A stretch of DNA of 64,000 nt from Candidatus Omnitrophota bacterium. Its GTDB lineage: Bacteria > Omnitrophota > Gorgyraeia > Gygaellales > UBA12090. Each line of letters opens with the position of its first letter. Position 1 is the stretch's first letter. Position numbers and translations under genes: made by a program. The notes under the pieces were generated by a model. The model was given only the letters and a program-made list of their open reading frames with translations, was not told where the DNA came from and ran no database searches. Below are positions 25,762 to 47,751 of the stretch, one piece after another. Location of the stretch: assembly GCA_030674475.1 (NCBI GenBank), contig JAUSCZ010000012.1, positions 319-64,318 on the forward strand, written 5' to 3'.

Positions 25762-25776
25762 ATTATGGTTATATTA

Positions 25777-25818
25777 GAAATCCTCCCCTTACCAAGGGGA
25801 GGCGGGGTGGGGTTAAAA
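25777..25818. repeat. REP-like palindromic repeat
   Basis: 'AATCCTCCCCTTACCAAGGGGAGGCGGGGTGGGGTTAAA', immediately upstream of pabB. Confidence 0.6.
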
Positions 25819-27302
25819 TGCCATACTTGACCTGGAAATCGTTTGACTGGAAGCAGGACGCCTGGGGAATTTTTGAGGCAATTAAGGATAAGCAAAATGT
25901 CTTTTTTTTGGACAGTTCTCTGCGCCGTCCGGACTTAGGCCGGTATTCCTTTTTAGGCTTTGAGCCGTTTTGTATCTTTAAAGCCAAAGGCCAAAAAGAT
26001 TCGCTTAATCAGTTAAGAACTCTGCTTGGGCGCTACAGGTTAACAAATACGAAATTTCCTTTTTTAGGCGGGGCAGTCGGCTATCTGGCGTATGATTTCG
26101 GCTTAAGCTTAGAGAACATTGAGGAAAAAACCAAGGATGATATTGGCCTTCCGGATGTATTCTTTGGCTTTTACGATGTGGTAATCGCCATTGACCATTG
26201 GCAGAAAAAGCTGACTATTTTTTCCACCGGTTTTCCCGAAAAAAGCTCTTTCTTAGCCAAAAAACGCTCAGAGCAGAGATTAAAACAGTTTATTCAGGAG
26301 TTGTCTAAGCAGGGCCGTCATTCAGGTTGTGTCACGATGTCATTGCGAGCCCCGTTAGAAAACTTTAGCAATGTTAAAAGAGTTTTTCTAACGGGGCGAG
26401 GAGCCGCAGGCGACGCGGCAATCTCAAAAACGAGTTTGCTTCACCCCTTCGGGGTTCGCAATGACAAATTAGCAATTAAGCCTGTATCTAATTTCACCAA
26501 AGAGAAATATTTAAAAGCAGTTACCAAAGCCAAGGATTACATTAAAAAAGGCGACATCTATCAGGTTAATCTCTCCCAAAGATTCAGCGCGCAAACCTCT
26601 TTAAGCAGTTTTGACTTATATCAGAAACTACGCCAGGTTTCACCCAGCGACTTCTCGGCTTACCTTGCCTGCGGAGATTTTCAGATTATCAGCTCTTCTC
26701 CGGAGAGATTCCTTAGTTTTGACGGGAAAAAGGTTTCCACCCGGCCGATGAAGGGGACCCGGCCGCGAGGAACAAATCCCCGGGCGGACGCGCGCCATAA
26801 GCGGGATTTACTGCAAAGCCCCAAAGATAAGGCCGAATTGCTGATGATTGTGGATTTACTGCGTAATGACCTGGGCCGGGTCTGTAAATATGGCTCAATC
26901 AAAGTCAGCTCAATGCGCGCCCTGGAGGCCTATTCCACGGTTTATCAGACCACCGCCTCTATTGAAGGAGTTTTGCATCCGGAAAAAGACCGCCTTGACC
27001 TGCTCAAAGCCTGCTTTCCCGGCGGCTCAATAACCGGATGCCCCAAAATCCGCTCAATGGAGATAATTGAAGAACTTGAGCCGACTAAGCGGGCAATTTA
27101 TACCGGTTCGCTGGGCTATTTTGGATTCAATAATACCATGGACCTGAATATCTTAATCCGCACAATTTTGAAAAAAAGTGATAAAATATACTTTCAGACC
27201 GGCGGCGGAATCGTATCCGATTCCCAAGCCGAAAACGAATACCAGGAAACCCTCACCAAAGCCCAGGGTATCTTTAAGACGTTAAAGCGCGGTTGCCTGT
27301 AG
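25818..27302 (+). CDS. pabB: Aminodeoxychorismate synthase component I (chorismate-binding enzyme family)
   Basis: 'SSSPERFL', 'PKIRSMEIIEELE', 'RAIYTGSLGY', 'GGGIVSDSQAENEYQET' motifs. A PabC-like gene lies 11 kb downstream. Confidence 0.75.
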   Translation: MPYLTWKSFDWKQDAWGIFEAIKDKQNVFFLDSSLRRPDLGRYSFLGFEPFCIFKAKGQKDSLNQLRTLLGRYRLTNTKFPFLGGAVGYLAYDFGLSLENIEEKTKDDIGLPDVFFGFYDVVIAIDHWQKKLTIFSTGFPEKSSFLAKKRSEQRLKQFIQELSKQGRHSGCVTMSLRAPLENFSNVKRVFLTGRGAAGDAAISKTSLLHPFGVRNDKLAIKPVSNFTKEKYLKAVTKAKDYIKKGDIYQVNLSQRFSAQTSLSSFDLYQKLRQVSPSDFSAYLACGDFQIISSSPERFLSFDGKKVSTRPMKGTRPRGTNPRADARHKRDLLQSPKDKAELLMIVDLLRNDLGRVCKYGSIKVSSMRALEAYSTVYQTTASIEGVLHPEKDRLDLLKACFPGGSITGCPKIRSMEIIEELEPTKRAIYTGSLGYFGFNNTMDLNILIRTILKKSDKIYFQTGGGIVSDSQAENEYQETLTKAQGIFKTLKRGCL

Positions 27303-27385
27303 ATAGATAAATGTGCAGGGGGAGAATGAGGGGGTTTTCCTGATTGTAATCGGTCAGAATGGAGACAAAATATTTTCCCTCTATT

Positions 27386-27457
27386 CCTCTCCCCTTGTGG
27401 GAGAGGTAAGAAATCCTCCCCTTACCAAGGGGAGGCGGGGAGGGGTTAGGTGAGGGG
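27386..27457. repeat. Tandem pair of REP-like palindromic repeats at the island boundary
   Basis: CCTCTCCCCTTGTGGGAGAGG followed by CCTCCCCTTACCAAGGGGAGGCGGGGAGGGG. Confidence 0.55.
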
Positions 27458-27515
27458 TACAAACTGTGAGTTTTCCCCTGAGAACTTACCGATTACTTAT
27501 AACAGAAAAAATGGC

Positions 27516-27554
27516 TTGACAATATGTCGCAAAAAGCATATACTTTTTGCGACA
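27516..27554 (+). promoter_or_regulatory. abiE promoter (TTGACA-17-TATACT) with an overlapping perfect 30-bp palindrome (putative AbiEi operator)
   Basis: TGTCGCAAAAAGCATATACTTTTTGCGACA spans the -10. AbiEi proteins are known to autoregulate via inverted repeats. Confidence 0.55.
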
Positions 27555-27571
27555 AGCGATAGGTTATAGAA

Positions 27572-28171
27572 ATGACACAAAGTATTTATAATAAAGTAGT
27601 TAGCATGATATACGGAATGAAGAGGGGTTGGGTATTTACTACAACTAATTTTCTTGATCTTGGAAGTCGCACGGCCGTGGCTAAAACCCTAGAGCGTTTA
27701 GCGGACTCCGGTACTATTCGCCGACTCGCGCGTGGCCTGTATGATTACCCGGAGAAACATCCTGTGTTGGGAGAGTTACCCGCGAATTATGAGCGCATCG
27801 CTCAAGCATTGGCAGGAAGGGATAGTTTGAAAATTCAACCTTCCGGGGCATATGCCGCTAATCTGCTTGGTTTAACCGAACAGGTGCCGGCAAGAATTGT
27901 TTTTTTGACAGATGGCTCCAATAGAAAAGTGCAGGTCAAAAATCAGCAGATCATTTTGAAAAGAACAACCCCCAAGAATATGGCAACCGCCGGGAATGTG
28001 AGCGGTTTGGTCATTCAGGCTTTGCGGTATTTAGGTAAAGATCACGTAGATGCTAAAACAGTAGGAATACTTAATAAGAGATTAACGGGAGATGATAAGC
28101 GCCAGCTTATGCGCGATCTTCGCTATGCCCCCGCGTGGATAGGATCAATATTTAGACAACTACAGAGATAA
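27572..28171 (+). CDS. abiEi: AbiEi-family type IV toxin-antitoxin antitoxin / transcriptional regulator
   Basis: 'TAVAKTLERLADSGTIRRLARGLYDY' matches the AbiEi N-terminal wHTH. Paired with a downstream AbiEii gene. Confidence 0.7.
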   Translation: MTQSIYNKVVSMIYGMKRGWVFTTTNFLDLGSRTAVAKTLERLADSGTIRRLARGLYDYPEKHPVLGELPANYERIAQALAGRDSLKIQPSGAYAANLLGLTEQVPARIVFLTDGSNRKVQVKNQQIILKRTTPKNMATAGNVSGLVIQALRYLGKDHVDAKTVGILNKRLTGDDKRQLMRDLRYAPAWIGSIFRQLQR

Positions 28172-28178
28172 GAAGATT

Positions 28179-29204
28179 ATGGATAAATTCGTATTGTTGA
28201 CGCGTAAAGATAAACGCGCGTACTTTGAAGTGGCCGCGGCTAACTTGAACATAATGCCGCAACTGATTGAAAAGGATTTTTGGGTATGCTGGATACTAAA
28301 AATTATTTTTTCATTACCGAAGGTCGGCGCGCATTTAACCTTTAAAGGGGGAACATCCCTCTCAAAATGTTATAACGTTATTAAACGCTTTTCGGAAGAT
28401 ATCGATATTTCAATAGAAAGGCCTTTTTTATCAAAGACCCATGCTATCGAACCGGATAAAGAAAAAAGCAATAAGGAAAATCAGAAAAGACTCAAGGAAT
28501 TGCAATTGGTTTGTAAAACAAAAATTGATGAAATGATCATCCCCAGCTTAAAACAATCAATCGCGGCAGTTCTTTCCGATACCGGGGAATGGAAAATTGA
28601 ACCGGATTCCGGGGATGAGGACGGACAAACTGTTTTATTTATCTTTCCTCATGCTATGACGAGTACCGCGGAAAGTTACGTAAGATCCTCAGTCAAAATT
28701 GAATTTGGCGCTCGATCTGATCATTGGCCGGTTGAAACCGCGACAATTGTCCCCTATGTCGCGAATGTTTCCGGGGAGCGGGTTATTGAAGGGGCTTCCG
28801 CGCGCGTTTTAGCCGCGGAACGGACTTTTTGGGAGAAAGCGACGATCCTGCATATGATATATCATTATCCGTCTGAAAAAAACATACCGCCGCGAATGTC
28901 GCGGCATTATTACGATATATACGCGATGGCAGATTCGCCCATATATAAAAAAGCATTAAAGAGTATTTCGTTGTTAAAACATGTATCTGACCATAAATCT
29001 CTATTTTTTAAAGCGAATTGGGCGCATTATGATACAGCCAAGTCGGGTACCTTGCGGTTAGTGCCTCGTGATAATCTGGTGAGCCAACTGAAAAATGATT
29101 ACCGTCAAATGCAGCAAATGTTTTTTGAAGAGCCTCCGTCATTTGAGCAAATTATAGAAAAACTCCGGGCCATAGAAGAACAGATTAATAGGATCTCCTT
29201 ATGA
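28179..29204 (+). CDS. abiEii: AbiEii/AbiGii-family nucleotidyltransferase toxin (DUF1814)
   Basis: 'FKGGTSLSKCY...SEDIDIS' NTase motif typical of AbiEii. Confidence 0.75.
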   Translation: MDKFVLLTRKDKRAYFEVAAANLNIMPQLIEKDFWVCWILKIIFSLPKVGAHLTFKGGTSLSKCYNVIKRFSEDIDISIERPFLSKTHAIEPDKEKSNKENQKRLKELQLVCKTKIDEMIIPSLKQSIAAVLSDTGEWKIEPDSGDEDGQTVLFIFPHAMTSTAESYVRSSVKIEFGARSDHWPVETATIVPYVANVSGERVIEGASARVLAAERTFWEKATILHMIYHYPSEKNIPPRMSRHYYDIYAMADSPIYKKALKSISLLKHVSDHKSLFFKANWAHYDTAKSGTLRLVPRDNLVSQLKNDYRQMQQMFFEEPPSFEQIIEKLRAIEEQINRISL

Positions 29205-29349
29205 ATTACTACTGCACCTCAGATTATCACTTTTCGCGTTGCGTAAAAAAGAAGGCCCTGGCCTTATCCAATCCCGAACTGCATCGCCTTGCGCGAAAAC
29301 TATTAGAAGTTTAAAGGGAAAAAAGGAAAAATGGGGTCAGGGAATAATA

Positions 29350-29453
29350 GGGTCAGCGACCATTTTATTGAAAGATGGAGGAAATTTTGGGAAGCGTTAA
29401 CTATAATGAAAAAGGACAGACCACGAAAATGACAATAAATGGTCGCTGTCCTT
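29350..29453. repeat. Small TIR element (GGGTCAGCGACCAT ... ATGGTCGCTGTCC), GGGGTCAG-family relative
   Basis: A 12-nt inverted repeat with one mismatch flanks ~76 nt. It is preceded by a partial GGGGTCAG at 29333. Confidence 0.4.
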
Positions 29454-29530
29454 ATTTTCCGATTGTTCGCCTGGGCAAGGATTTTTGCAAAAAGACTAAA
29501 CCAAGGTGTGAAATATGCCCGATAAAGTAA
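29452..29530 (+). pseudogene. Fragment homologous to the 3' end of the endonuclease III-like gene at 45146..45787
   Basis: It translates to '..PIVRLGKDFCKKTKPRCEICPIK*', versus 'ALIVRLGKDFCKKTNPKCEICPIK*' at 45723..45787. The helicase start codon (29515) lies inside it. Confidence 0.6.
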
Positions 29531-32500
29531 AGAAACAATCCGAAGTGCAAAACAAAGCAATCAGGCTTTTTACTTATCTCGAAAAAGCCCTTTCTCTCGA
29601 TGACACTATCGTGAGAGATTTTCGGTCTACTATCACTGCACCTTCTCCTTGGTGGCTGGCAGATTTACCTGATGATGTTGAAAATCTTCAAGTTAGGCAG
29701 TTTGAAACTAATCAGACTGGGGATGAGGAGAATGCGACTCAAGATGAGGTTTGGCTTCGTGTGGAGAAAAAGAGTATCAAATCTGCTCCGCCGATGCCGG
29801 ATGCTCTGAACGAATGGATTGATGAAGTGAATCCCATTGAGACCCCAAAAGCAAAGGAAAAAATTGACCGGAAGATAAAGTTTGATCAAGACGAAACTCG
29901 CGCTCGGGAATTCAAAAAATTCAGAAAAGAATTTGCTCAAGGAAACAAGCCGCCGAAACTTCTTGAGGAATGGGTTGTTTTGAGCCCAAATAAATTTCCC
30001 GAGGTTATAGAAGAAAGATATATTGAGGAATACTTTAACGATCACCCCGAACTCCAAAGTCTTCTTAATGACTACATTGAGAACGAATGGAAGCCGTGGG
30101 CGCAAAAAGTGGTAAAAATCTACAAGGCAAATTTGCTTTATGACCAACTCTATGCCTTACGCTTTCTTTTGAAAAACGAGGGGGATAGTTATGAGTTGTT
30201 ATGGGGACACGGTTTACTCACATGGAAGCACGGTGGCATAGGGACAATTTATGCACCGATCTTTTTAACTCCTTTAACGCTGGGTTTTGACGCTTCAAAG
30301 AGAGTAATTGAGATTTATCCCGATCCAATGTTTCGGGGTTTTGCGGAAATTTCATCCCTGTACGAAATGGATAATCCCGCAGAAATGGACTTGATAACAT
30401 GGTCGGACAAAATCAATTCAAATCCATTCAACTTTTGGCATTTTGAAACACTCAAAACGCAGACGCGGTTTATGATAAACACACTCTCAACCTCAAGTGA
30501 AGACTATTTTGACGAAAAACTTGTTTCTGCTCCCAATTCTACCGTAACGCCGAGTATTTGGAACGCGCCAGTGATATTTGCGCGGAAACGGACAAATGAC
30601 CTTTGGTCAAAATACGCGGGTATTATTCGGCGCGATATCGAGCAGAACAACATAGAACCGACAGAGTTTATTGCCGATCTTGTTGGCAACTATCAAGAGA
30701 CGGAGCAAATAGAAAGCGAGAATGGCGGCGAAAAAGAAGGCGAAACGATACTAAAAGAATCAGAATTGTTTTTCCCGTTGCCATGGAATGATGAGCAAAA
30801 AAGAATCGCGGAACGGCTTGATGCGCATTATGGGGTCGTAGTAAAAGGTCCGCCGGGCACCGGAAAAACTCACACTATCGCCAATCTTATTTCTCGCTTT
30901 CTGTCACAAGGAAAGACTGTTTTGGTTACATCACAAACGAGTAAGGCATTGGAAGTTTTAAGAGATAAATTACCAGAAAATATTCGAAGCCTTGCCGTCT
31001 CGCAACTCCATCAAACCGCGAGACAGGACGATGTATTACAACAATCAATTACTGAGATTAGCTCTAACCTGGGAGAGCGGCATACAAAATTCAGCGAGCA
31101 AAAAGCGGAAATTAAAAGAAAGGAACTTCAGGGCGTCAGGGAAGAGAGAGCACCTCTCGCAAATCAAATAAGGAAGTACATTCTTACGGACTCAAGCGTA
31201 AAAATTGAAATAGACGGAGAGGAAATCAATCCTATTGACGCGGCGAAGTTGGTTAGCAGGTACAAAGATGATCCAACGCTTGAATGGTTTACGGATAAAA
31301 TTCACTTTGAGACAAAACTCAATTTCAAAGACGAAGATTTAGAAGAAATCTACATGTTACTTACAGAACTTAATTCCGAAGAGCGGCAACTACATAAATT
31401 TGAGTTACCAATGACCTTCAGTCTACCAAGCGAAGATGCGGCAACGGGAGTTTTTTCCTCATACCGAGATCTAAGTGATAGGGTGAAAACATCAAATAAA
31501 GTTTTTGGCGACTCCAATCCAAACCTCCAGCAGGAGAAACTCACAACCCTATGGGAACAACTATCAAGCGCTAAAAAGGTTTTATTTTCCATAAACAAGG
31601 ATTATGAAAAAGAGATTTTTGGATTGTGTATAGTCAGCCAAAGCGAGCGAGAAAAATGGCGCGTCGTCCTTTCAAAAATTGGCGAGAAAATCTATTTGAT
31701 CGGCAAAAGTAGTACAAGCATTCTCGGCCACGAAATTATCGGTAACCAAAACATCCCGCTCACTGATCTTTTGGAGGCAATATCTGTTCTGAAGGAAAAG
31801 GCGAGAGGTAGAACAAAGATAGGGACTTTTGCGAAGTTGCTTTTGTCGTCTCATGGGAAAAAGGTTTTGGAGAGCTACAAAGTAGACGGCCGCGTTCCCG
31901 AAGATGCAGAACGCTTGGAAATTCTGCACCAAAGCGTTCTTATCAAGCAAGCACAGAAAGAAATTAAAACTTTATTGGGACAAAGTTTTTCTCACCTGAA
32001 GTCGCCTTTTGATTCGCAGGATCAAGAGGTTGATGTGGTACAACTTGAGGTATTGATCTCAAGTCTTGAAAGGATAATCAATTACTACGAAAACTTTGTT
32101 ACCATAGACAAATTTTGCAAAGCAATAAGACAACTTTCCGATTTTGCGTTTACTAAAATCGAGGATATCGAAAAACTTACTGAAATCATTTCGTCCCATG
32201 TAGCGAAATTTGAGATCGTGAATTTAGAAACTTTATTGTCCGGCTGGACTCAATCAATTGAGACATCTATAAACGGCGAAAGACACTCAATCATAGAAAA
32301 ATTACTATCGGCGATAAACAAACGGAATACAACCGCATGGAGAAACGCCCTTGATGAACTCGGGTTGCTTCTTGATAAAAAGCAAAGGGCGATCCGCTTG
32401 AATGAATTATCTCAAAAAGTTAAAGAACTCTCTCCGAATCTCTATCAGGATATTGGTGGACTTGCCGATCAGAAAAAAAAGCTTTTGTGCCCTAAAAATC

Positions 32501-34113
32501 TCGGTCTTGCATGGAAAATAGCGCGACTCGAATCGTGGCTCGATCATATCCATAATCATATTGATATTGATAGTTTGCAAAATCAATTAGAGCGGCTAAC
32601 CAAAAAAGAATATCAACTGAATTCCGATCTCGTAACTATTCTCGCTTGGCAGAGACAGATTGATAAGGTTACGAAAAAACAACGTGATGCGCTGATGGCG
32701 TGGTCGCACGAGATGAAAAAGTATGGAAAGGGTACCGGCAAGTGGGCGATTACGCATCTCCGTGCGGCACAAGAGGCATTGAAAGAGGCGAAAAATGCCG
32801 TGCCTGTTTGGATTATGCCGCTCCATCGTGCCGCTCAAATGTTTTCGGATCCGAAGGCGGGAATGTTCGATATTGTTATTTTTGACGAAGCGAGCCAGTG
32901 CGATATACGAGGAATTACAATAGGATATCTCGGTAAAAAACTTCTCGTTGTCGGCGACCCAGAACAGATTAGCCCCGCCGGTATATTCCAAGATCAAGAG
33001 AAAATATTTGAACTCATTTCTCGATTTCTGTTTGATATTCCTTTCAAAGAAAGTTTCTCAATAACATCGAGCTTGTTTGATCTCGCAAAAATAAGATTAT
33101 CCAATATAATTCAGTTAAACGAACATTTTAGGTGCGTGCCGGAAATCATCGCATTCAGCAATCACCATATATACGAAGGAAAACTTAAACCTCTACGGTA
33201 TCCTCACCCTAAAGGATTATTGAAGCCCGCACTTGTTCCGATTTTTATAGAAACGGGCTATCAAAATACAAACAACAAAGTCAACGTGCCAGAAGCAGAA
33301 GCGATTGTTGAAAAGTTAGTTGAATGCCTAAATGACCCAAATTATCAAAAACGCCCGGATAATGTAGGTAGCCACATATGTACATTCGGGATCGTGTCTC
33401 TGCTTGCCGAAGATCAAGCGAAATATATCAAAGAGTTAATTTTAAGACGTATTGACGAGAGAACAATAGAGGAAAGGCGTATTGTTTGTGGAGATGCGTA
33501 TGCGTTTCAAGGAGATGAAAGGGATGTGATGTTTCTTTCTGTGGTGAAAGCACTCGATTCAAATGATCCGGAAGATGTAGTTAGATCTCTGACGGACGAG
33601 GGTACGAAACGAAGGTTTAACGTTGCCGCGTCTCGTGCCCGCGATCAGATGTTTTTATTTCATTCAATCCCCCTTGAAGAATTTAGAAACCCTAACGATT
33701 GGAGATATAAACTTCTCAACTGGTTTTACAATCCAAGGACCGAGGAATTGAATGCTGGGCGAGATGCCCTAAAGCGAGAGTTTAATTCTGGCAGGGCATC
33801 GCAGTTCTCTTTTGATGTTGGAAATATCCTGATCGATCGTGGCTATCAGGTTTTGCCGGAATATCCAGTCATTGGGTATCGAATTGACCTTGTTGTGCAG
33901 GGTGCAGAGGCTCGTCTTGCTGTGGAGTGCGATGGAGATCAATATCATACACTAGAAAATTGGGAAGAGGATCAAGTGCGAGAGAGACAGCTGAGAAGGG
34001 CTGGATGGGAATTTTGGAGAGTTACCGGAAGTGCGTTTTATCGAAACAAAGAAAAAGCTCTCGAAAGTTTATGGAAGAAACTAAACGAATTAGGCGTTAA
34101 ACCGATTATTTAA
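29515..34113 (+). CDS. 1532-aa SF1 (Upf1/DNA2-like) helicase with a DUF4011-like N-terminal region and a C-terminal Vsr/DUF559-type PD-(D/E)xK nuclease domain
   Basis: Walker A 'GPPGTGKTHTIANL', Walker B 'VIFDEASQ', 'VVGDPEQISP', 'CGDAYAFQGDERDVMFLSVV' and 'RRFNVAASRARDQMFLF' motifs. C-term 'YRIDLVVQGAEARLAVECDGDQYHTLENWEEDQVRERQLRRAGWEFWRV' matches DUF559. Confidence 0.8.
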   Translation: MPDKVKKQSEVQNKAIRLFTYLEKALSLDDTIVRDFRSTITAPSPWWLADLPDDVENLQVRQFETNQTGDEENATQDEVWLRVEKKSIKSAPPMPDALNEWIDEVNPIETPKAKEKIDRKIKFDQDETRAREFKKFRKEFAQGNKPPKLLEEWVVLSPNKFPEVIEERYIEEYFNDHPELQSLLNDYIENEWKPWAQKVVKIYKANLLYDQLYALRFLLKNEGDSYELLWGHGLLTWKHGGIGTIYAPIFLTPLTLGFDASKRVIEIYPDPMFRGFAEISSLYEMDNPAEMDLITWSDKINSNPFNFWHFETLKTQTRFMINTLSTSSEDYFDEKLVSAPNSTVTPSIWNAPVIFARKRTNDLWSKYAGIIRRDIEQNNIEPTEFIADLVGNYQETEQIESENGGEKEGETILKESELFFPLPWNDEQKRIAERLDAHYGVVVKGPPGTGKTHTIANLISRFLSQGKTVLVTSQTSKALEVLRDKLPENIRSLAVSQLHQTARQDDVLQQSITEISSNLGERHTKFSEQKAEIKRKELQGVREERAPLANQIRKYILTDSSVKIEIDGEEINPIDAAKLVSRYKDDPTLEWFTDKIHFETKLNFKDEDLEEIYMLLTELNSEERQLHKFELPMTFSLPSEDAATGVFSSYRDLSDRVKTSNKVFGDSNPNLQQEKLTTLWEQLSSAKKVLFSINKDYEKEIFGLCIVSQSEREKWRVVLSKIGEKIYLIGKSSTSILGHEIIGNQNIPLTDLLEAISVLKEKARGRTKIGTFAKLLLSSHGKKVLESYKVDGRVPEDAERLEILHQSVLIKQAQKEIKTLLGQSFSHLKSPFDSQDQEVDVVQLEVLISSLERIINYYENFVTIDKFCKAIRQLSDFAFTKIEDIEKLTEIISSHVAKFEIVNLETLLSGWTQSIETSINGERHSIIEKLLSAINKRNTTAWRNALDELGLLLDKKQRAIRLNELSQKVKELSPNLYQDIGGLADQKKKLLCPKNLGLAWKIARLESWLDHIHNHIDIDSLQNQLERLTKKEYQLNSDLVTILAWQRQIDKVTKKQRDALMAWSHEMKKYGKGTGKWAITHLRAAQEALKEAKNAVPVWIMPLHRAAQMFSDPKAGMFDIVIFDEASQCDIRGITIGYLGKKLLVVGDPEQISPAGIFQDQEKIFELISRFLFDIPFKESFSITSSLFDLAKIRLSNIIQLNEHFRCVPEIIAFSNHHIYEGKLKPLRYPHPKGLLKPALVPIFIETGYQNTNNKVNVPEAEAIVEKLVECLNDPNYQKRPDNVGSHICTFGIVSLLAEDQAKYIKELILRRIDERTIEERRIVCGDAYAFQGDERDVMFLSVVKALDSNDPEDVVRSLTDEGTKRRFNVAASRARDQMFLFHSIPLEEFRNPNDWRYKLLNWFYNPRTEELNAGRDALKREFNSGRASQFSFDVGNILIDRGYQVLPEYPVIGYRIDLVVQGAEARLAVECDGDQYHTLENWEEDQVRERQLRRAGWEFWRVTGSAFYRNKEKALESLWKKLNELGVKPII

Positions 34114-34155
34114 AAAACCATTAGAGTAAGCCAAAGTTGAAGAATACAGAAAAAT

Positions 34156-34229
34156 GGGGTCAGAGTGAATTTATGATGGCAGAATCGTGAGGGGAATAGA
34201 GAGAATGCTTAAAAAATAGACCTGACCCC
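34156..34229. mobile_element. 74-nt MITE, GGGGTCAG...CTGACCCC family, copy A
   Basis: Terminal inverted repeats GGGGTCAG/CTGACCCC. Identical, including short flanks, to copy C at 35536. Confidence 0.7.
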
Positions 34230-34249
34230 TATATTTGGCTGAAAATAAA

Positions 34250-34322
34250 GGGGTCAGAGCGGATTTAGGATGGTAGAATCGTGAGGGGATGGAGGGAATA
34301 CTTTAAAAGTAGACCTGACCCC
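34250..34322. mobile_element. 73-nt MITE, same family, copy B (diverged)
   Basis: GGGGTCAGAGCGGATTTAGGATGGTAGAATCGTGAGGGG...AGACCTGACCCC. Confidence 0.65.
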
Positions 34323-34431
34323 GACTCCTATGTGCGTTGAAGTAGCGAAAGCAAAATTTGCAATGAAACAGGCATGTAAGAGGTTAGTTTTCGCTATGAG
34401 CTTTATTACGGCTTAAATCTATGATTCTAAT

Positions 34432-35379
34432 ATGAAGAAATATGCAGATTCAATAACACAATATTTACAAAATGAATTAAAGAATTCTGCAGTTAGTTAT
34501 TTAAAGGCAGGGTTGGAGATTTTTCATAAGACAAATAAAGCAGGAAGTTGGAGCAGTCAACCTGCTTTGGGAAATTTGGGGATAGCGGTAGAATTGATGT
34601 TAAAGGCGTTTATCGTAAAAAATAATCCCCTTCTCCTTTTTAAAGGGTTGCCTATAGAACTTCAGGTGTTATTTACTTGCCCTGATTCTTTGCCCCGAGA
34701 TTTTAATTGGAGACTATTTGATATCGATTTACGATCATTTAAGTATGAAACCAAAGAATTAAATGAGTGTATCTCAGCATTTTATGTATTATTACCAGAG
34801 CATAAACAAGAGCTTAATCCGTACATGCAATTATTATCACGGTATAGAAATGCTAGTGTTCATTCTGCTTTGCCTTCATTTCAGGCCTATGAGATTCAAA
34901 GAGTGGCGTTTCTATCGTTGCGTTTGTTATCAATTCTCCAGTCTCGAAAAATAATCTCTGAGTATGCGCACATCACTACAAAAGATGACAAGTATTTCCT
35001 TTCTGCATTTAAACTTGACCGAATCGACCGTGTTAAGAAGAAAATCGATGATGCTAAGGAAAAGTCAAAACGTATTCCAGCGGGGCAAGCTTCATTGAGC
35101 GTAGATGGTTGGGAGAACTATGTGACACAATGTCCAATATGCGAATCTGACGGGATGCTTTCTGGCTATACAGATATACATGTTGAAGGGTCAGCAGAAG
35201 ATGTTGATCTATCGCTAGACTTTCTCGCAGATGGATTCATATGTGAAGAGTGTGGATTAGAGTTAAATGATACTGAAGAACTCAGGTTGGCAGGGATAGA
35301 GTTGTATTATGATCGTTCTAGTGAATTAGATGCATGGCATAGGGATCAGTATGAGCCTGATCCAAGTGAATATCTATAA
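34432..35379 (+). CDS. Hypothetical 315-aa protein with an Rx4H (HEPN-like) motif and a C-terminal zinc ribbon
   Basis: 'LLSRYRNASVHSALP' (R-x4-H) at aa ~139-144; 'CPICESDGM...CEECGLEL' Cys pairs. No other recognisable motif. Confidence 0.4.
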   Translation: MKKYADSITQYLQNELKNSAVSYLKAGLEIFHKTNKAGSWSSQPALGNLGIAVELMLKAFIVKNNPLLLFKGLPIELQVLFTCPDSLPRDFNWRLFDIDLRSFKYETKELNECISAFYVLLPEHKQELNPYMQLLSRYRNASVHSALPSFQAYEIQRVAFLSLRLLSILQSRKIISEYAHITTKDDKYFLSAFKLDRIDRVKKKIDDAKEKSKRIPAGQASLSVDGWENYVTQCPICESDGMLSGYTDIHVEGSAEDVDLSLDFLADGFICEECGLELNDTEELRLAGIELYYDRSSELDAWHRDQYEPDPSEYL

Positions 35380-35535
35380 CTATTTGCTTTTATGAACGAA
35401 GCCTATCCCCTTAAAATTCCGTCAGTTTTTTTGAAAAAAGAGGGAGAAGGATAGCGGGGTAAATAGGGTTAGCTTAGGTTGTCCCTATTTTTTCAAAGAG
35501 GAGCAATTTGGAAAAATTATTGCAGAGGGAATAAT

Positions 35536-35609
35536 GGGGTCAGAGTGAATTTATGATGGCAGAATCGTGAGGGGAATAGAGAGAATGCTTAAAAAATAGA
35601 CCTGACCCC
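35536..35609. mobile_element. 74-nt MITE, same family, copy C
   Basis: Identical to copy A. Confidence 0.7.
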
Positions 35610-35639
35610 TATATTTCCTATATTTACGCGGAACATCTG

Positions 35640-36412
35640 GAAGTATGGTATGGGCAGAAAAAAACAGAGACTATCAGCCGGCTAAGAGGAGAATACAAAC
35701 ACAGGATAAATTACCGGCATATCATAGATTGGCTGGTAAGGAAGCCCGGCGCATTCCAACAATACCGGTATCGGCAGGATATGTTCCCCACGACAATATT
35801 CCGCCTGGCATATGACAATTTAATAGCGCATAGCCCTGCCAAAGGGCATAAGGATTATCTGGAGATATTATATTTAGCTTCAAAAGAGAGCGAAACAGGG
35901 GTTGGACAGGCATTGGAGAGCCTTTTAGAGAATCAGCAGGCTATAAATATGGACGCGGTCAGGAAAATCTTAGAAGTGGATACAGAAAAAACATCAGTTG
36001 CGGATATACGAATCGACAGTATTAACTTATATGATTACGATGAATTCCTGACGGTTAAGGAGGCAGCCTGATGATAAAGACAGCAATCAATATTAAGTCG
36101 CGCCTCAAGGAAATGTTAAAAGAACTGCATTTATCAGCAATCAGGGAATCGTATGAAGAGCTGGCAAAAGACGCGCAAGCGAATTCGTTATCTCCTGAAG
36201 AATTTTTATTAGGATTGACTGAGCGGGAATGTGAATACCGGCGGTTAAGACGAACAGATCGGTTATTACGGGAATCGCGGCTGCCGCTGGAGAAAACGAT
36301 GGAGTTATTTAATTTAAAACGGCTGCCGGCGATAGTAATCCAGAAGGTAAAAAGCCTGCTTGATGGTGAATTCCTTAACCCCTCCGAAAATGGGGTCAGC
36401 CCCGGACAGTAG
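35640..36412 (+). mobile_element. IS21-family remnant: istA C-terminal fragment and 3'-truncated istB (N-terminal 113 aa only)
   Basis: 'MLKELHLSAIRESYEELAKDAQANSLSPEEFLLGLTERECEYRRLRRTDRLLRESRLPLEKTMELFNLKRLP' matches the IstB N-terminal domain. It stops before the Walker A box, exactly where repeat E1 begins. The upstream ORF 'DMFPTTIFRLAYDNLIAHSPAKGHKDYLEIL...' abuts it as istA does. Confidence 0.65.
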
Positions 36413-36470
36413 ACATTAATTGATAAAAGATTAATTGAATGACTATAATCGCGTTTTGTCCACACAACGC
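36392..36470 (+). repeat. Repeat E1: GGGGTCAG-initiated ~78-nt element end carrying an inward sigma70 promoter (TTGATA-18-TATAAT)
   Basis: ~90% identical to E2 (37480..37548). It truncates istB and sits 170 nt upstream of the DUF3800 gene. Confidence 0.6.
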
Positions 36471-36642
36471 TTAATTCATCGAATTCGATGGGGAGATAAA
36501 AAATGGACATCCTTTGTAACATGTTGAAATCTTTAACAGGATAGATAAATATTGTGACAAAGTTAATCTTGTTAAAAAGATTGGGCTAATCGTTTTTATC
36601 CGCGAAGTAGAGTAAAACGTGGCTGTGCAGAAGGCAGGGTAA

Positions 36643-37295
36643 GGTGTTTTATTTATATCTAGACGAAAGCGGTGATTTGGGGGTTTGATTTTGTTACTAA
36701 GAAACCCTCAAAATTCTTCACTATCATGGTGCTCGTGCTGAAAGGACAGGATAAGAACCGCGCGCTTATTAATGCGGTAAAGCATACATTAAGGCGCAAG
36801 TTAGGGAAAAGGAAGCTGTTCAAGAGCATTGGCTGCGAATTAAAGGCAAGCAGGGTGTCTATTGAAATTAAAAAGTATTTCTACGACCAGGTCAAGGGGT
36901 TGGATTTCAAATTGTATACGTTGACTCTCAACAAGAAAAGGGTGTATCAAAGCTTAATGCAAGAAAAGGAGAGAATTTATAATTACCTCGCCCGCTTAGT
37001 GTTGGATAAGATAAGTTTTGATAATGCTGAAGTCAGGGTTACGCTGATAGTGGACAAAAGCAAGGGTAAGCCTGAAATTTCCGAATTCAATTCATATATC
37101 TTTAGGCAGATTCAGGCAAAAATTGATCCCAAGATACCATTAGATATTGAGCATGCGTTATCGCATGAGAACTTGGGTTTGCAAGCAGTGGATATGTTTA
37201 CTTGGGGGATATTCAGAAAATATGAGAGGAAAGACTTTGGGTGGTTCAGGGTATTTGAGAGCAAGATGGCTTACGATGATGTTTATCTACCATAA
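36643..37295 (+). pseudogene. DUF3800-family gene with a +/-1 frameshift in a G5 tract
   Basis: GTG-initiated 'VFYLYLDESGDLGV*' (the N-terminal DUF3800 DESGD motif) stops at 36686. The rest continues in another frame as 'GFDFVTKKPSKFFTIMVLVLKG...GLQAVDMFTWGIFR'. A single-base change in GGGGG would fuse them. Confidence 0.6.
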
Positions 37296-37626
37296 AATAA
37301 AAATGAGCGCGCCTTACAGGTTCGTTAAGTTTAGGCTTTTGCCCACCATACGGAGGGGAACACCTAAACAACCCGTAACGGTCTTACCGCTCACTTATAA
37401 GTATACCCTATGAGAAGGTTTTGTCAAGATGAAAATTTGGATAAATAGTCGTTTCTGTGCAAAACGACGGGAAAACGACGGGGTCAGACCCGGACAGTAG
37501 ACATTAATTGGTAAAAGATTAATCGAATGACTATAATCGCGTTATGTCCAACTATGGGATAGTAGAAACATATTGACAATGTAACTACATTGTAGTATTA
37601 TTGTAATAGAATAAGAAAATGAACCA

Positions 37627-37902
37627 TTGATGCATATTCATAGTTTTGACTGGGATGAGAAAAATGAAAACCATATAGCCGAACATGGAGTCGCGATCTT
37701 TGAGGTTGAGGAGGCAGTTCTATTTAGTAGGCCTTTCTATCAGAGAAGCAGGGAGGGTAAATATATTGCTTATTCTCTCACCGAGGAAGAGAGGTATCTC
37801 TTTATAGTTTTTGTGATCAAAGATAGTGGCCGGATAAGGGTGATTAGCGCCAGAGATATGAATGAGAAAGAGAAGCGTTATTATAAAAAGAAGAAGAGGT
37901 AA
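37627..37902 (+). CDS. brnT: BrnT-family ribonuclease toxin (DUF497)
   Basis: 'FDWDEKNENHIAEHGVAIFEVEEAV...RVISARDMNEKEKRYY' matches BrnT. Confidence 0.75.
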   Translation: MMHIHSFDWDEKNENHIAEHGVAIFEVEEAVLFSRPFYQRSREGKYIAYSLTEEERYLFIVFVIKDSGRIRVISARDMNEKEKRYYKKKKR

Positions 37903-37909
37903 AATAAAC

Positions 37910-38239
37910 ATGAAGAAACTGCCCAAATTCAAAACGGAAAAAGAAGAGGCCAGTTTTTGGGATACGCACAGCCCATTGGATTATCCAGGTGAGTTCAGTG
38001 AGGTAAAGAATCCGTTTGAATTCGCTCCCGGTCTTTTAAAAAAAGCCGCCCGAAGCCGCGAAGAAAGAAAACGCCAGCTTACCTTAAGGATGGGGCAGCG
38101 TCAAATTGATCTCGCCAAGGTTATTGCTAAATATAAAGGATTGGGCTATCAAACTCTAATGAGAATATGGGTTATTGAAGGAATCCGTCAAGAGATTAAG
38201 ACGCATCCAGAGATAGAAAAACTCCTTACCAAAATATAG
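37910..38239 (+). CDS. brnA: BrnA-family antitoxin
   Basis: 'KKLPKFKTEKEEASFWDTHSPLDY' matches the BrnA N-terminus. C-terminal RHH-like region. It overlaps brnT. Confidence 0.7.
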   Translation: MKKLPKFKTEKEEASFWDTHSPLDYPGEFSEVKNPFEFAPGLLKKAARSREERKRQLTLRMGQRQIDLAKVIAKYKGLGYQTLMRIWVIEGIRQEIKTHPEIEKLLTKI

Positions 38240-38337
38240 CTAAATAAAAAGCTGGAGAGAATGGGTTAAGCTCAAGCAATAGAAATTAACTTCTAAAGTT
38301 GAGGTCTGACCCCAGAAAGTGCAGCGGTACCATTTAG

Positions 38338-39150
38338 ATGAAAATTTGGCTTAATGGGAAATTTGTAAAAGAGGAAGAAGCGAAGGTTGACATTACCTCA
38401 AGCGGTTTTTTATACGGCCAGGGGGTTTTTGAGACGATGCGGGCTTATAATGAGCGGGTTTTTCGTTTGGACAGCCATCTGGAGCGCCTGTTTAAGGCCC
38501 TGCCTATTCTTAACCTGGAATTATCCGTAGGACCTGAGGTTTTGAAAAAGGCGCTTAAGCAGGCTTTAAAAGAAAATAATCTTAAAGACGCCTATTTACG
38601 GATAACGGTCTGGCAGGGGAAAGATAAGGTTGAGGCCGCGGTTTTTGCCCGGGCGTATAATTTTTTAACCAAAGAGGATTACCATAAAGGCTTTAAGGCG
38701 ATAGTTTCCAGTTTTCGCCAGAATGAATTTTCCATCTTTTCCGGAATTAAGTCCGCTAACTATTTGCCTTTACTCCTGGCTTATCAGGAGGCAAAAAAGA
38801 AAAATGCCGATGAGGCCATACTTTTAAATACCCGGGATTTTCTGGTTGAGGCCTCCCGGGCTAATCTCTTTTTAGTTAAAGATAATTGTTTATTGACCCC
38901 ATCGTTAGACTGCGGATGCCTTCCCGGAATTACCCGGGATACGGTTTTAGGCCTGGCGGCTAAGGAAAAGATAAAGGTAATTGAGACTAAGCTTAAACCG
39001 GAGGATGTCCAGAGAGCCGAGGAGGCCTTTTTGACTAATTCCTTGATTGAGGTGATGCCGCTGGTCGCGGTTGAAGGAAGGCCGATTAAAAAAGGAGTTC
39101 CCGGTAAGATTGCCGAGCGTATTTTAAAACGTTACAAGGGATTGACTTAA
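38338..39150 (+). CDS. pabC: Class IV aminotransferase-fold protein, probable aminodeoxychorismate lyase
   Basis: Fold-type IV PLP enzyme ('GQGVFETMRAY', 'EAFLTNSLIEVMPLV'). It is the only nearby partner for pabB. Confidence 0.6.
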   Translation: MKIWLNGKFVKEEEAKVDITSSGFLYGQGVFETMRAYNERVFRLDSHLERLFKALPILNLELSVGPEVLKKALKQALKENNLKDAYLRITVWQGKDKVEAAVFARAYNFLTKEDYHKGFKAIVSSFRQNEFSIFSGIKSANYLPLLLAYQEAKKKNADEAILLNTRDFLVEASRANLFLVKDNCLLTPSLDCGCLPGITRDTVLGLAAKEKIKVIETKLKPEDVQRAEEAFLTNSLIEVMPLVAVEGRPIKKGVPGKIAERILKRYKGLT

Positions 39151-45145: not shown

Positions 45146-45787
45146 ATGAGTTCAAAAGTTTACCAACTGGAAGCTATCTATGATAAACTCTACCGCCATT
45201 TTGGCCCCCAGTCCTGGTGGCCGGGAGAGACTCCTTTTGAGGTTATCGTAGGGGCTATTCTCACCCAGAGCACCAATTGGCAGAATGTTTCCAAGGCGAT
45301 AGATAATCTAAAAAAGTCCAAGGTGTTGACTCCTAAGAAACTTCATGCCTTGCCCCAACCGCGCCTGGCTGAACTTATCCGGCCTTCGGGTTATTTTAAC
45401 GTTAAGGCCAAACGGTTGAAGGAATTCCTGAATTTCTTATTTAAGAATTACGGTGGAAGCCTGAAAAAAATGTTCAGCCGCCCCTTAGAAGACCTAAGAA
45501 AGGAAATCTTAGCTGTCCGCGGAATCGGCCCGGAAACCGCCGACTCCATCCTGCTTTATGCCGGAGGCCTTCCGGTATTTGTGGTGGATGCCTATACCAA
45601 GAGGATTTTTTCCCGTCAGAAGCTTTTAAGCGAGGACGCGGAGTATTATCAAGTCCAGGAATTATTTACCCGAAGCCTTAAAAAAGATGTCCAATTATAC
45701 AACGAATACCACGCCCTGATCGTGCGCCTGGGAAAAGACTTTTGCAAGAAAACCAACCCCAAATGCGAAATCTGCCCGATAAAATAA
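45146..45787 (+). CDS. Endonuclease III-like HhH-GPD DNA glycosylase family protein
   Basis: HhH-GPD region 'VGAILTQSTNWQNV...RGIGPETADSILLY'. C-terminal Cys cluster 'CKKTNPKCEICP' (three Cys only). Confidence 0.6.
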   Translation: MSSKVYQLEAIYDKLYRHFGPQSWWPGETPFEVIVGAILTQSTNWQNVSKAIDNLKKSKVLTPKKLHALPQPRLAELIRPSGYFNVKAKRLKEFLNFLFKNYGGSLKKMFSRPLEDLRKEILAVRGIGPETADSILLYAGGLPVFVVDAYTKRIFSRQKLLSEDAEYYQVQELFTRSLKKDVQLYNEYHALIVRLGKDFCKKTNPKCEICPIK

Positions 45788-45860
45788 AAGCAAAAGGCTT
45801 GACAATCTCCGAATTCTCTAGTAAGATTATGGAGTTACTTATTCCAAAAAAGGACTTATT

Positions 45861-47054
45861 GTGGAAACAATAATACCAAGATTATTTACGCCGCCTAAAC
45901 AAAGTTTTTTTCTTTTCGGGCCCCGCGGAACGGGGAAATCAACATGGCTCAAAGCACATATGCCGGATGCCATCTGGATTGATTTATTGGAAGCTGACCA
46001 GTTTCGCTCATACAGCGCCAGGCCGGAACGGCTTAAAGAGCTTGTGCTTGCTGAAACCGGGAAGAAAATCGTAGTCATTGATGAAATTCAAAAAGTTCCC
46101 GATTTATTAAGCGTAGTGCATTCTCTTATTGAAAAAAAACTTGGGTTTAGGTTTATCCTTACAGGTTCAAGCCCGCGAAAATTGAAGAAAACGGGAGCGG
46201 ATTTGCTCGCGGGAAGAGTGATTAAGCAGGCGTTTCATCCTTTTATGGCGGTTGAGCTTGGCAGGAAATTTAATCTTAATTCAGCGTTAAAACAAGGGCT
46301 TCTGCCGCTGGTGTTTTCTGCTGCCGCTCCTGAGGCGGTATTAAGGACTTACGCTTCGTTATATGTCAGAGAAGAAGTTCAAGCGGAAGGGCTGACGCGT
46401 AACATCGGCAATTTTTCAAGATTTCTTGAAGCGGTCAGTTTTTCTCACGGTTCATTGCTTAATACGAGTAATGTTGCCAGAGATTGTGAAGTTGAAAGGA
46501 AAACAGTAGAAACATATATAACAATTCTTGAGGATTTTCTTTTGGCTTATCGTATACCTGTTTTTTCAAAGAAAGCTAAAAGGGCAACGATAACTCATCC
46601 TAAGTTCTACTATTTTGACGCGGGGGTTTACCGCTCGCTTAGGCCTTGCGGGCCTTTGGATAGGCCTGAGGAAATAGAAGGAGCGGCGCTTGAAGGGCTG
46701 GTTGCCCAGCATTTGACGGCCTGGAGTTCTTATCGAGGCGAAAAAAATAAAGTTTATTTTTGGAGGACCGCGGCCGGGTCCGAAGTGGATTTTGTGGTAT
46801 ATGGAGAAGAGGTGTTTTGGGCTATAGAAGTTAAAAATACTTCAAAGATAAGGCCGGAAGATCTTCGCTCCCTAAGAAGTTTTAAATCCGAGTATCCGCA
46901 AAGCAGCGCGTTTTTATTGTATCGCGGTAAAGAACGCTTGAAAAAAGACAATGTGCTCTGTATCCCTTGCGATGAATTCCTGTTAAACTTGAACCCTGAA
47001 AAAATACAAATAAACTACGGGCCGGACCCGGACGGGAAAGTGAGGTCAGAATGA
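45861..47054 (+). CDS. AAA-family ATPase (COG1373, DUF4143)
   Basis: Walker A 'GPRGTGKST'; 'IDEIQKVPDL'; the C-terminal DUF4143 region parallels the 1..953 gene. Confidence 0.65.
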   Translation: METIIPRLFTPPKQSFFLFGPRGTGKSTWLKAHMPDAIWIDLLEADQFRSYSARPERLKELVLAETGKKIVVIDEIQKVPDLLSVVHSLIEKKLGFRFILTGSSPRKLKKTGADLLAGRVIKQAFHPFMAVELGRKFNLNSALKQGLLPLVFSAAAPEAVLRTYASLYVREEVQAEGLTRNIGNFSRFLEAVSFSHGSLLNTSNVARDCEVERKTVETYITILEDFLLAYRIPVFSKKAKRATITHPKFYYFDAGVYRSLRPCGPLDRPEEIEGAALEGLVAQHLTAWSSYRGEKNKVYFWRTAAGSEVDFVVYGEEVFWAIEVKNTSKIRPEDLRSLRSFKSEYPQSSAFLLYRGKERLKKDNVLCIPCDEFLLNLNPEKIQINYGPDPDGKVRSE

Positions 47055-47117
47055 ATTTAGGATGACAGAATTATAAGGGGAATAGAGAGAATGCTTAAAA
47101 AATAGACCTGACCCTGT
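47042..47117. mobile_element. MITE, GGGGTCAG-family, copy D (5' end degenerate), overlapping the ATPase stop codon
   Basis: 'GAGGTCAGAATGAATTTAGGATGACAGAATTATAAGGGGAATAGAGAGAATGCTTAAAAAATAGACCTGACCC', followed by a duplicated CTGACCCTGTAAAC. Confidence 0.6.
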
Positions 47118-47143
47118 AAACTGACCCTGTAAACCCCGTTTCT

Positions 47144-47569
47144 GTGATAAAAAAGCAGGATCATAAGGAAAAATATGGTATATTCGCGGAGAATCCTTAC
47201 GATTTAGCAATGATGTTTTGTATGGAGAGACTCTTGCCATTACTCGAGGAGAAGAATCAAGGCGGAGTGCAACTTATCGCGGAGAGTCGTGGAAAGAAAG
47301 AAGACGATGAGTTGATGTTAAGTTTTTTACGGATTGCTAATCAGGGTACCAGCTACATACCTGCTGTTCGATTTAAAAAGATAAATTTCAAGCTGAAATT
47401 TGTTCCTAAAATGATGAATGTGGTAGGCACGCAGTTAGCGGATTTGGCAGCTTATCCGGTTGCTCGGTATATACATAATCCTAATAAGCAAAATTCAGCA
47501 TACGATATTGTTAAGACAAAATTTTACAAGGGCGAAGGATGGATACAGGGATTGAAAATATTTCCATAA
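47144..47569 (+). pseudogene. 5'-truncated DUF3800-family gene (C-terminal ~140 aa only)
   Basis: 'VVGTQLADLAAYPVARYI' parallels 'GLQAVDMFTWGIFR' of the 36643 copy. The N-terminal DESGD part is absent, and a MITE lies immediately upstream. Confidence 0.5.
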
Positions 47570-47751
47570 AAACAAAAAGCCCCGATTCGCATCAGAGCTT
47601 TTTGCCGACCGGGAATCCCCAGTCCCTTAATTCAATTTCTATATAAAATATACCTCGGAAATAGTTGTTTGTCAAGATATTTCATAGTATAGTAAGATTT
47701 TGGAATTGCTGATTCCAAAAATGGACTTAAAATGGAAATGCGGAAAAAGCT

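Follow-up and report, generated by a model that had tools for sequence, protein, structure and literature searches.

The DNA analysed here is a 64,000-nt stretch (the window) of a contig from a Candidatus Omnitrophota metagenome-assembled genome (MAG). It carries pabB, encoding aminodeoxychorismate synthase component I, and a class-IV aminotransferase gene resembling pabC, which are separated by the interval 27303-38337, hereafter the island. The sequence-only reading of this DNA had placed pabB and the only PabC-like gene about 11 kb apart, and the measured gap was 11,035 nt. The interval is very probably a strain-variable defence and toxin-antitoxin (TA) island, built stepwise at a recombination hotspot within a pabB-pabC spacer that was formerly a few nucleotides long.

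Six intact modules were found in the island: AbiEi/AbiEii, a superfamily 1 (SF1) helicase-nuclease, a 315-aa HEPN-like protein (orf315), a DUF3800 protein, a DUF3800-V RNA and brnTA. Between them lie four remnants identified by homology, namely the 3' ends of a 223-aa gene and of an EndoIII-like gene, a piece of IS21 and an old pabC start (Table 1). The genes that had been listed from the letters (AbiEi/AbiEii, the helicase-nuclease, the HEPN-like gene, the IS21 remnant and brnTA) held up in both coordinates and content. The cargo is rich in defence and TA genes, with PADLOC and Pfam matches for AbiE, a PDC-S37/Hhe-like helicase, DUF3800 and BrnTA. In observation and interpretation alike the sequence-only reading was correct, apart from three annotations amended below, which concern DUF3800, the hairpins at the left edge and a distance of 24 nt.

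Table 1. Features of the pabB-pabC island, its flanks and the second variable site (window coordinates; a dot marks elements without strand).
Feature	Position	Strand	Remarks
pabB (aminodeoxychorismate synthase component I)	25818..27302	+	left core flank; Chorismate_bind and Anth_synt_I_N domains
Two GC-rich hairpins	27386..27449	.	second (27407-27449) is a copy of a 40-nt repeat resembling repetitive extragenic palindromes (REP)
Promoter-like site TTGACA-17-TATACT	27516..27554	+	overlaps 30-nt palindrome; upstream of AbiEi
AbiEi/DUF6088	27572-28171	+	full length; AbiEi and AbiEii together span 27572..29204
AbiEii	28179-29204	+	full length
Remnant of 223-aa gene	29228..29311	+	last 28 codons of a gene intact in L082 and L003
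GGGGTCAG stub, then hairpin element	29333..29456	.	20-nt arms, 29346-29365 and 29437-29456
Remnant of HhH-GPD/EndoIII-like gene	29461..29531	+	71-nt copy of the 3' end of 45146-45787; 79% identity
SF1 helicase with C-terminal MTES_1575/DUF559 nuclease	29515..34113	+	1532 aa; related to PDC-S37, ProA and Hhe
E88a and E88b	34149..34330	.	34149-34236 and 34243-34330; tandem copies of a 75-88-nt element, GGGGTCAG...CTGACCCC ends
orf315	34432..35379	+	315-aa HEPN-like protein, C-terminal zinc ribbon
E88c	35529..35616	.	identical to E88a at 100% over 84 nt, 99% over 88 nt
Internal IS21 fragment	35646..36391	+	truncated by E88c (left) and D2a (right)
IstA, C-terminal 141 aa	35646-36068	+	43% identical to annotated istA genes
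IstB, N-terminal ~107 aa	36071-36412	+	
D2a	36392..36462	+	71-nt repeat starting with GGGGTCAG; promoter-like TTGATA-18-TATAAT; precedes DUF3800 module
DUF3800 protein	36672..37295	+	207 aa, intact
DUF3800-V RNA (Rfam RF02964)	37398-37300	-	76.5 bits; gathering score 37.4
Displaced old pabC start (AAGATGAAAATTTGGATAAAT)	37426..37446	+	continues straight into pabC in L086
Small hairpin, tandem AAAACGACGGG duplication, D2b	37448..37550	+	hairpin 37448-37468; D2b 37480-37550
brnTA module	37573..38239	+	promoter with palindrome 37573-37601
BrnT	37627-37902	+	full-length profile match
BrnA	ORF from 37862	+	full-length profile match; 109-aa homologues suggest start at 37910
Small palindromic element, ~50 nt	38263..38313	.	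after brnA; degenerate left arm, right arm ending in CTGACCCC
Class-IV aminotransferase (pabC-like)	38338..39150	+	right core flank
Second variable site	45791..47829	+	outside the island; 2 kb extra relative to L082, directly after the EndoIII-like gene

The site was compared in 80 genome loci around PabB relatives, in which all window genes were located by tblastn. An uninterrupted pabB-pabC junction, which the sequence-only reading had proposed to look for in related genomes, proved to be the rule: among the 71 loci having both pabB and the aminotransferase gene, 65 showed a gap of at most 100 nt, and this tight linkage was seen in Omnitrophota and Clostridia alike. In locus L002, where the two genes are adjacent, the tblastn match to pabB ends at 9643 and that to pabC starts at 9648; the sequence reads as stop codon, 4 nt and ATG. 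None of the island proteins was encoded in any of the 80 relatives' loci (tblastn), and the site differs in the relatives, which rules out the interval as conserved core.

The same linkage bears on the identity of the flanking genes. PabB passes the cutoff of the NCBIfam pabB equivalog TIGR00553 (346.6 versus 328.4 bits). The gene at 38338-39150 is the sole class-IV aminotransferase gene of the window; its product falls below every NCBIfam PabC cutoff (best aminodeoxychorismate lyase model 174 bits, cutoff 308) and also below those of the branched-chain aminotransferase models. Since no curated cutoff was passed, the name pabC rests on gene linkage. That the gene is an aminotransferase unrelated to pabB, the alternative named in the sequence-only reading, is unlikely given the conserved linkage, although the product scores below the PabC cutoffs.

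Close relatives (PabC 86-93% identical) each have different content upstream of pabC. The closest locus, L001, from an Omnitrophica bin of the Hainich aquifer, shares 83-91% amino acid identity with the window across the flanking genes. Between pabB and pabC it holds 2 kb that encode an AAA_14/DUF4143 ATPase and, between inverted GGGGACGCTTCTATTT repeats, a Y1 transposase (IS200-like, RAYT-like). In L082 the same position is occupied by 8 kb with ten other genes. These encode a DUF6036 nucleotidyltransferase with a 223-aa partner, a DUF4143 ATPase, BrnTA, a 316-aa protein with a weak Zn-protease (DUF2268) match, an AlbA_2/HATPase_c_4 protein and three small open reading frames (ORFs). L086 carries the L001-type Y1 transposase gene and an unassigned stretch, followed by a DUF3800 gene directly abutting pabC. 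The contig of L085 starts 440 nt upstream of pabC, where inspection by eye suggests the C-terminal end of an IS110-type transposase gene. Homology between the DNA of the window and that of its nearest relatives ends 11-16 nt before the pabB stop codon and restarts 2-5 nt before the pabC ATG. Because close relatives hold different cargo at this position, the pabB-pabC site is a recombination hotspot, and not the site of a single insertion.

Two side observations concern these relatives. The Y1 transposase genes of L001 (12676-13410) and L086 (421-1150) are 99% identical and are surrounded by perfect 16-nt inverted repeats GGGGACGCTTCTATTT. Just before its pabC ATG, L085 has a motif, GGGTGACCCCAGAAATTT, similar to the right end of the window's small palindrome plus its flank.

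The island also deviates in composition, a comparison with the flanks that had likewise been proposed as a check. Its GC content was 40.9%, versus 44.2% for the rest of the window, and was lower than that of all 124 segments of equal size outside the island. Tetranucleotide distances were 281-363 in the island versus 123-185 for all other 4-kb segments, a difference of about twofold.

One step in the growth of the island is recorded at the 5' end of pabC. Here the sequence-only reading had noticed a duplicate of the pabC start inside the island and had suggested recombination or insertion; both the duplicate and its interpretation were borne out. The remnant at 37426-37446 agrees with the window's own pabC start over 14 nt exactly and at 18 of 20 positions, and with the pabC start of L001 at 20 of 21 positions. 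In L086, the sequence ...gttttgtcAAGATGAAAATTTGGATTAATGGG... leads from the DUF3800-V RNA promoter directly into pabC, so that the DUF3800-pabC join lies at the very sequence surviving as the remnant. L086 shows the state before brnTA arrived. The window keeps the L086 sequence up to ...GGATAAAT (37446); an interruption of 889 nt (37447-38335) follows, made up of the small hairpin, D2b, brnTA, the small palindrome and 24 nt, and pabC begins again at 38338. L082 has a 91-nt displaced pabC 5' fragment, with about 20 nt of L001-like upstream sequence, ahead of the same D2-brnTA unit.

The remnant carries the L086/L001 allele GGAT.AAT, and the functional pabC start carries the L082 allele GGCTTAAT. 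Over the first ~260 nt of pabC the window is closest to L082 (informative sites 17:7) and afterwards to L086 (10:20). We propose that, in the latest event, an L082-like arrangement supplied an L086-like ancestor (DUF3800-RNA-pabC) with both a segment of about 0.9 kb containing brnTA and a new 5' end for pabC, whereby the initial 20 nt of the resident gene were displaced. Either recombination through a single crossover in pabC or the Campbell-type integration of a circle that bore the pabC start may have been the route. Every island gene points the same way as pabC and no plus-strand terminator-like site was found between brnA and pabC, so pabC is probably now transcribed by read-through from island promoters.

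The remaining scars are of the same kind. The gene whose last codons follow AbiEii encodes 223 aa in L082, where it is the partner of the DUF6036 nucleotidyltransferase. The start codon of the helicase lies inside the EndoIII-like 3'-end remnant: at 29513-29531 that remnant, read out of frame, supplies the start and the first five codons, and a 95%-identical helicase copy in L176 begins with different residues, MTEKKE. The IS21 fragment had no DNA match among plasmids, and its IstA part was recognised by protein-level search.

The parent of the EndoIII-like remnant stands beside the second variable site. This site holds a DUF4143 (AAA_14) ATPase gene whose product is 95% identical (amino acids) to that of the L082 pabB-pabC island. 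Also present are a DUF3800 gene truncated at its 5' end, a duplicate of the ATPase promoter/5' end and an E88-like element at 47037-47114; in L082 an E88-like element is all that the site contains. The element at 47037-47114 is a fourth, degenerate E88 copy and shows a 13-nt tandem duplication at its right end. As the ATPase is shared across the sites and the EndoIII-like 3' end precedes the helicase, modules move between the two hotspots, and they sometimes carry the end of an adjacent core gene along.

Modules with copies elsewhere have sharp boundaries, homology ending at the gene boundaries for both brnTA and the helicase. The island is best read as a stepwise assembly of self-contained modules, most with their own promoter-like site, in which each replacement or insertion probably left a scar: the 3' end of the 223-aa gene, the EndoIII-like 3' end (from the hotspot 8 kb off), the IS21 fragment and the old pabC start. 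We infer that modules are exchanged by recombination and not through a dedicated enzyme, with homologous events in the flanks and short-homology or illegitimate ones at the joints. Homologous or illegitimate exchange, or Campbell-type re-insertion of circles, could each have delivered segments.

The small terminal-inverted-repeat or REP-type repeats that had been noticed in the island are real: the window has 11 GGGGTCAG sites, where 1.3 would be expected, and 10 of them fall in the island. Palindromic repeats ending in GGGGTCAG are present at six of the seven internal module junctions. E88a and E88c stand in direct orientation and bracket orf315; D2b, 94% identical to D2a, precedes the brnTA module, and the promoter-like site of the D2 repeat is a strong one. 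The left ends of the elements are often tandemly duplicated. In L082 the small palindrome exists in an "empty", fully palindromic version, GGGGTCAGACCTCAAC...GTTGAGGTCTGACCCC. A terminus just before pabC had been placed 28 nt from the gene: the terminus is present, but CTGACCCC (38306-38313) ends 24 nt before the ATG. In another Omnitrophota defence island (L162, 9040-9260), three tandem copies of CAGAGACAACGGGGTCA(G) and one of AAAACAACGGGGTCAG were observed, which resemble the duplicated left ends in the window and L082.

No target-site duplication of any length was found at 12 GGGGTCAG-type elements examined, and no such elements accompany brnTA, the helicase or orf315 where these occur in other genomes. 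For these two reasons we do not regard the elements as vehicles of the modules; they behave like lineage-specific repeats of the REP, REP-doublet (REPIN) or miniature inverted-repeat transposable element (MITE) type, concentrated in variable DNA. Such repeats most likely pile up in dispensable DNA and may supply short homologies for module gain, loss and shuffling. An Rfam scan gave no match for the repeats and returned the DUF3800-V RNA instead. Viral contigs gave no matches to the E88 core, and 23 single matches to a 16-mer from the palindrome were judged to be at about chance level.

The tandem REP-like palindromes near pabB, which the sequence-only reading took for the left terminus of the island, do not mark its end, because the 40-nt unit of the second hairpin also occurs outside, at 23452-23494 and 25776-25815. 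The first of these copies lies in frame within the gene of a 726-aa protein (ORF 22119-24299), where the insertion adds 13 residues (IKNPPLTKGRWGGVR region) relative to L001. The other fills the spacer upstream of pabB, which measures 15 nt in L001 and 56 nt in the window.

The repeats resemble REP/REPIN systems with REP-associated tyrosine transposases (RAYTs) in being short palindromes with inverted ends, in lacking target-site duplications and in occurring as several intergenic copies, and L001 and L086 have a Y1 transposase between inverted repeats at this very locus. The GGGGTCAG elements differ in that the repeats flanking that transposase (GGGGACGCTTCTAT) are another sequence, absent from the window, that the 64 kb yielded no enzyme cognate to them, and that they are concentrated in variable regions instead of being spread over the genome (64 kb sampled). 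With integron cassette arrays and clusters of attC sites lacking integron integrases (CALINs), the island shares co-oriented single-function modules separated by imperfect palindromes of 50-90 nt. An integron-like array was nevertheless rejected: there is no intI/IntI, and the repeats, with their GGGGTCAG/CTGACCCC ends, have no attC R''/R' core (RYYYAAC/GTTRRRY), judged by reading the sequences. Moreover, the island modules have promoter-like sites of their own, the repeats are of several unrelated kinds, and gene remnants lie between the modules.

It is unlikely, but worth weighing, that an active and so far undescribed system mobilises the modules as cassettes, with the GGGGTCAG-ended elements as its recombination sites or ends and with its enzyme (RAYT/HUH, IS110-type or otherwise site-specific) encoded elsewhere. 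That enzyme would excise and insert modules, sometimes running one-ended into neighbouring core genes. The placement of the elements at nearly every internal junction, and of all but one of the window's sites in the island, would follow from such a system, as would the bracketing of orf315 by E88a/E88c direct repeats and of the DUF3800 module by D2a/D2b. So would a brnTA left junction near the same GGGGTCAG end in two genomes (with the pabC breakpoint at codon 7 versus codon 30), left ends duplicated in tandem like multiple binding sites, and modules that bring the ends of neighbouring core genes along. Transposase genes are also at hand in the relatives, with Y1 in the pabB-pabC site of L001 and L086 and an IS110-type end beside a TGACCCCAGAAA motif in L085. 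However, the 64-kb window contains no candidate enzyme, the relatives' Y1 gene is flanked by the other repeat, and module copies occur elsewhere free of elements. Apart from a common terminus of 8-11 nt the elements are heterogeneous, and repeats that merely pile up in dispensable DNA would be distributed alike.

An undescribed module-shuffling system in Omnitrophota, with a trans-acting enzyme that starts at an element end and mobilises the adjacent module and sometimes a core-gene end too, seems to us quite doubtful. If it existed, the mobilised segment would re-enter at another element or through the homology that it carries, and the travel of core-gene fragments (the pabC 5' end and the EndoIII-like 3' end) between the two hotspots would be explained. 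The repeat family at the junctions is a candidate for a role in module exchange.

An integrase-mediated integrative element, or its decayed remains, targeting the 5' end of pabC would turn the duplicated pabC start into attL/attR. Direct repeats of the pabC start, exact over 14 nt, do flank the 0.9-kb brnTA segment, though not the whole island, and those of L082 (91 nt) enclose a larger segment; pabC is thereby restored to an intact gene, much as happens with elements that target gene ends. We nonetheless find this very unlikely: the length of the repeat differs between the two genomes and no copy lies at the pabB side. Furthermore, there is no tyrosine or serine recombinase among the scanned island ORFs of the window or L082, and no tRNA gene near the island.

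That the interval is an assembly chimera, in which several strains or loci were joined at short repeats, has to be considered for any MAG. An independent assembly of the same sample does break at repeats (L081 starts at 38284; L179 spans 34207-35562), and other assemblies hold no exact record of the PabB or AbiEii proteins. The repeats, at 71-88 nt, are expected to be shorter than the reads, though, and those two contigs, both 100% identical, confirm the order E88a-E88b-orf315-E88c (L179) and the palindrome-pabC junction (L081). Two loci from other samples show DUF3800-RNA-pabC start (L086) and pabC remnant-D2-brnTA-palindrome (L082), and the scars are consistent across genomes, which leaves a chimera with little credibility.

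Construction by transposons, with Tn3-family-like mini-elements or MITEs with GGGG ends and composite transposons bringing the genes in, is barely credible: termini beginning with GGGG, a 30-nt imperfect terminal inverted repeat (77% complementary) around brnTA, E88 copies flanking orf315 and the IS21 remnant speak for it, but none of the 12 examined elements has a target-site duplication, no transposase was found, brnTA copies elsewhere are without the inverted repeats, and the IS21 fragment is internal, cut by repeats and not bounded by its own ends.

Several points weigh against stepwise assembly of a defence island by recombination, the reading that we favour. No strain that is near-identical and has an empty site came to light; PabB identity is only 73% in L002, the nearest genome in which the two genes adjoin. 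The pabC mosaic is only suggestive (maximum chi-square, permutation p = 0.067), its possible breakpoint falling at about nt 261-270. In the window and in L082 the left junction of brnTA lies within 24 nt of the same GGGGTCAG end while the pabC remnants are unequal, a pattern that could reflect one event with later deletion or a defined element end. The island contains no intact mobility gene, integrase or target-site duplication that would point to a specific mechanism, and its module junctions beyond four independently confirmed stretches rest on a single MAG assembly. Finally, a function of the modules in defence is predicted from homology and gene neighbourhood.

Defence islands at core-gene hotspots of E. 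coli, Pseudomonas and Vibrio are the closest parallel. Fixed core flanks, cargo differing between close relatives, dominance of defence and TA genes, deviant composition and mobile-element debris are common to both. The present island differs in lying inside a tightly linked two-gene biosynthetic pair, not between operons, in having no integrase or recognisable mobile-element backbone, and in its host, an uncultivated Omnitrophota bacterium. It is a well-resolved case of a known phenomenon, a defence/TA hotspot, in an unusual position and an understudied phylum. Here the hotspot has opened within a tightly coupled biosynthetic pair and left both genes whole, and the order of events can be read from scars and sister genomes. 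This makes it a clean example, with no change to current concepts. It also yields a small, delimited set of candidate defence modules: the HEPN-like zinc-ribbon protein, DUF3800 with its RNA, and the widespread helicase-nuclease of 1.5 kaa.

AbiEi, AbiEii, BrnT, BrnA and DUF3800 all gave full-length profile matches, those of AbiEi (E = 3.7e-70) and AbiEii (E = 1.3e-104) in PADLOC. The 30-nt palindrome upstream of AbiEi is probably an operator.

The helicase-nuclease shares the SF1 core and the MTES_1575 nuclease with PDC-S37, ProA and Hhe proteins, but lies far below the NCBIfam cutoffs for ProA (236.6 versus 1500 bits) and Hhe (130.5 versus 2000 bits). Its residues 1-375 had no profile match, and a literature search for "PDC-S37" found nothing. 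Over 2,600 proteins belong to the family at E <= 1e-50, with identities of 64-94% among the best 120 listed. For proteins assigned by name to Levybacteria and Woesebacteria, of the candidate phyla radiation (CPR), identity was 64-70% over ~1,500 residues. Such unusually strong conservation across phyla suggests frequent horizontal transfer. In another Hainich contig, a helicase copy of 95% identical DNA adjoins DarT/Macro (DarTG) and Eco57I-type restriction-modification genes; homology to it begins at the start codon and covers 29513-34074 only.

No Pfam match was obtained for orf315, whose sequence is 100% identical to that of the Candidatus Omnitrophota MAG protein Q7J72_01645. In its family (28 sequences), an R139-N140-x3-H144 motif and four Cys are invariant. 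In the AlphaFold model (predicted local distance difference test, pLDDT, 88), residues 2-212 are helical and a zinc-ribbon part rich in beta structure comes after them; the protein thus has the conserved R-x4-6-H motif in an all-alpha domain by which HEPN proteins are recognised. HEPN proteins were the top Foldseek matches, although below significance. As motif and helical model fit and the fold matches are not significant, the label "HEPN-like" appears reasonable but unproven. Homologues of orf315 occur in defence islands, beside genes for HsdR, GmrSD, TIR_2, AIPR, SIR2 with DUF87, and PDDEXK.

The DUF3800 gene had been described as frameshifted, which was wrong: its ORF spans profile positions 13-149 of 149, and from residue 4 to its last residue, 207, the protein matches the L086 copy at 97% identity. 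What was taken for a second DUF3800 frame is the minus-strand gene of a DUF3800-V RNA; RNA motifs associated with DUF3800 were described by Weinberg et al. 2017 (PMC5737381). The RNA gene has its own strong promoter-like site on the minus strand (TTGACA-16-TATACT, 37427-37400). It is convergent with the DUF3800 gene, and its -35 box abuts the old pabC start.

Copies of brnTA with 76-87% DNA identity were found in many unrelated contexts, the homology covering 37570-38234 only; that in L167 lies between LptF/LptG-family (PF03739) genes and an AdoHcyase gene. Elsewhere in the window, a c-di-GMP-I-GGC riboswitch aptamer was matched at 60725-60817, just over the gathering score (59.7 versus 59 bits).

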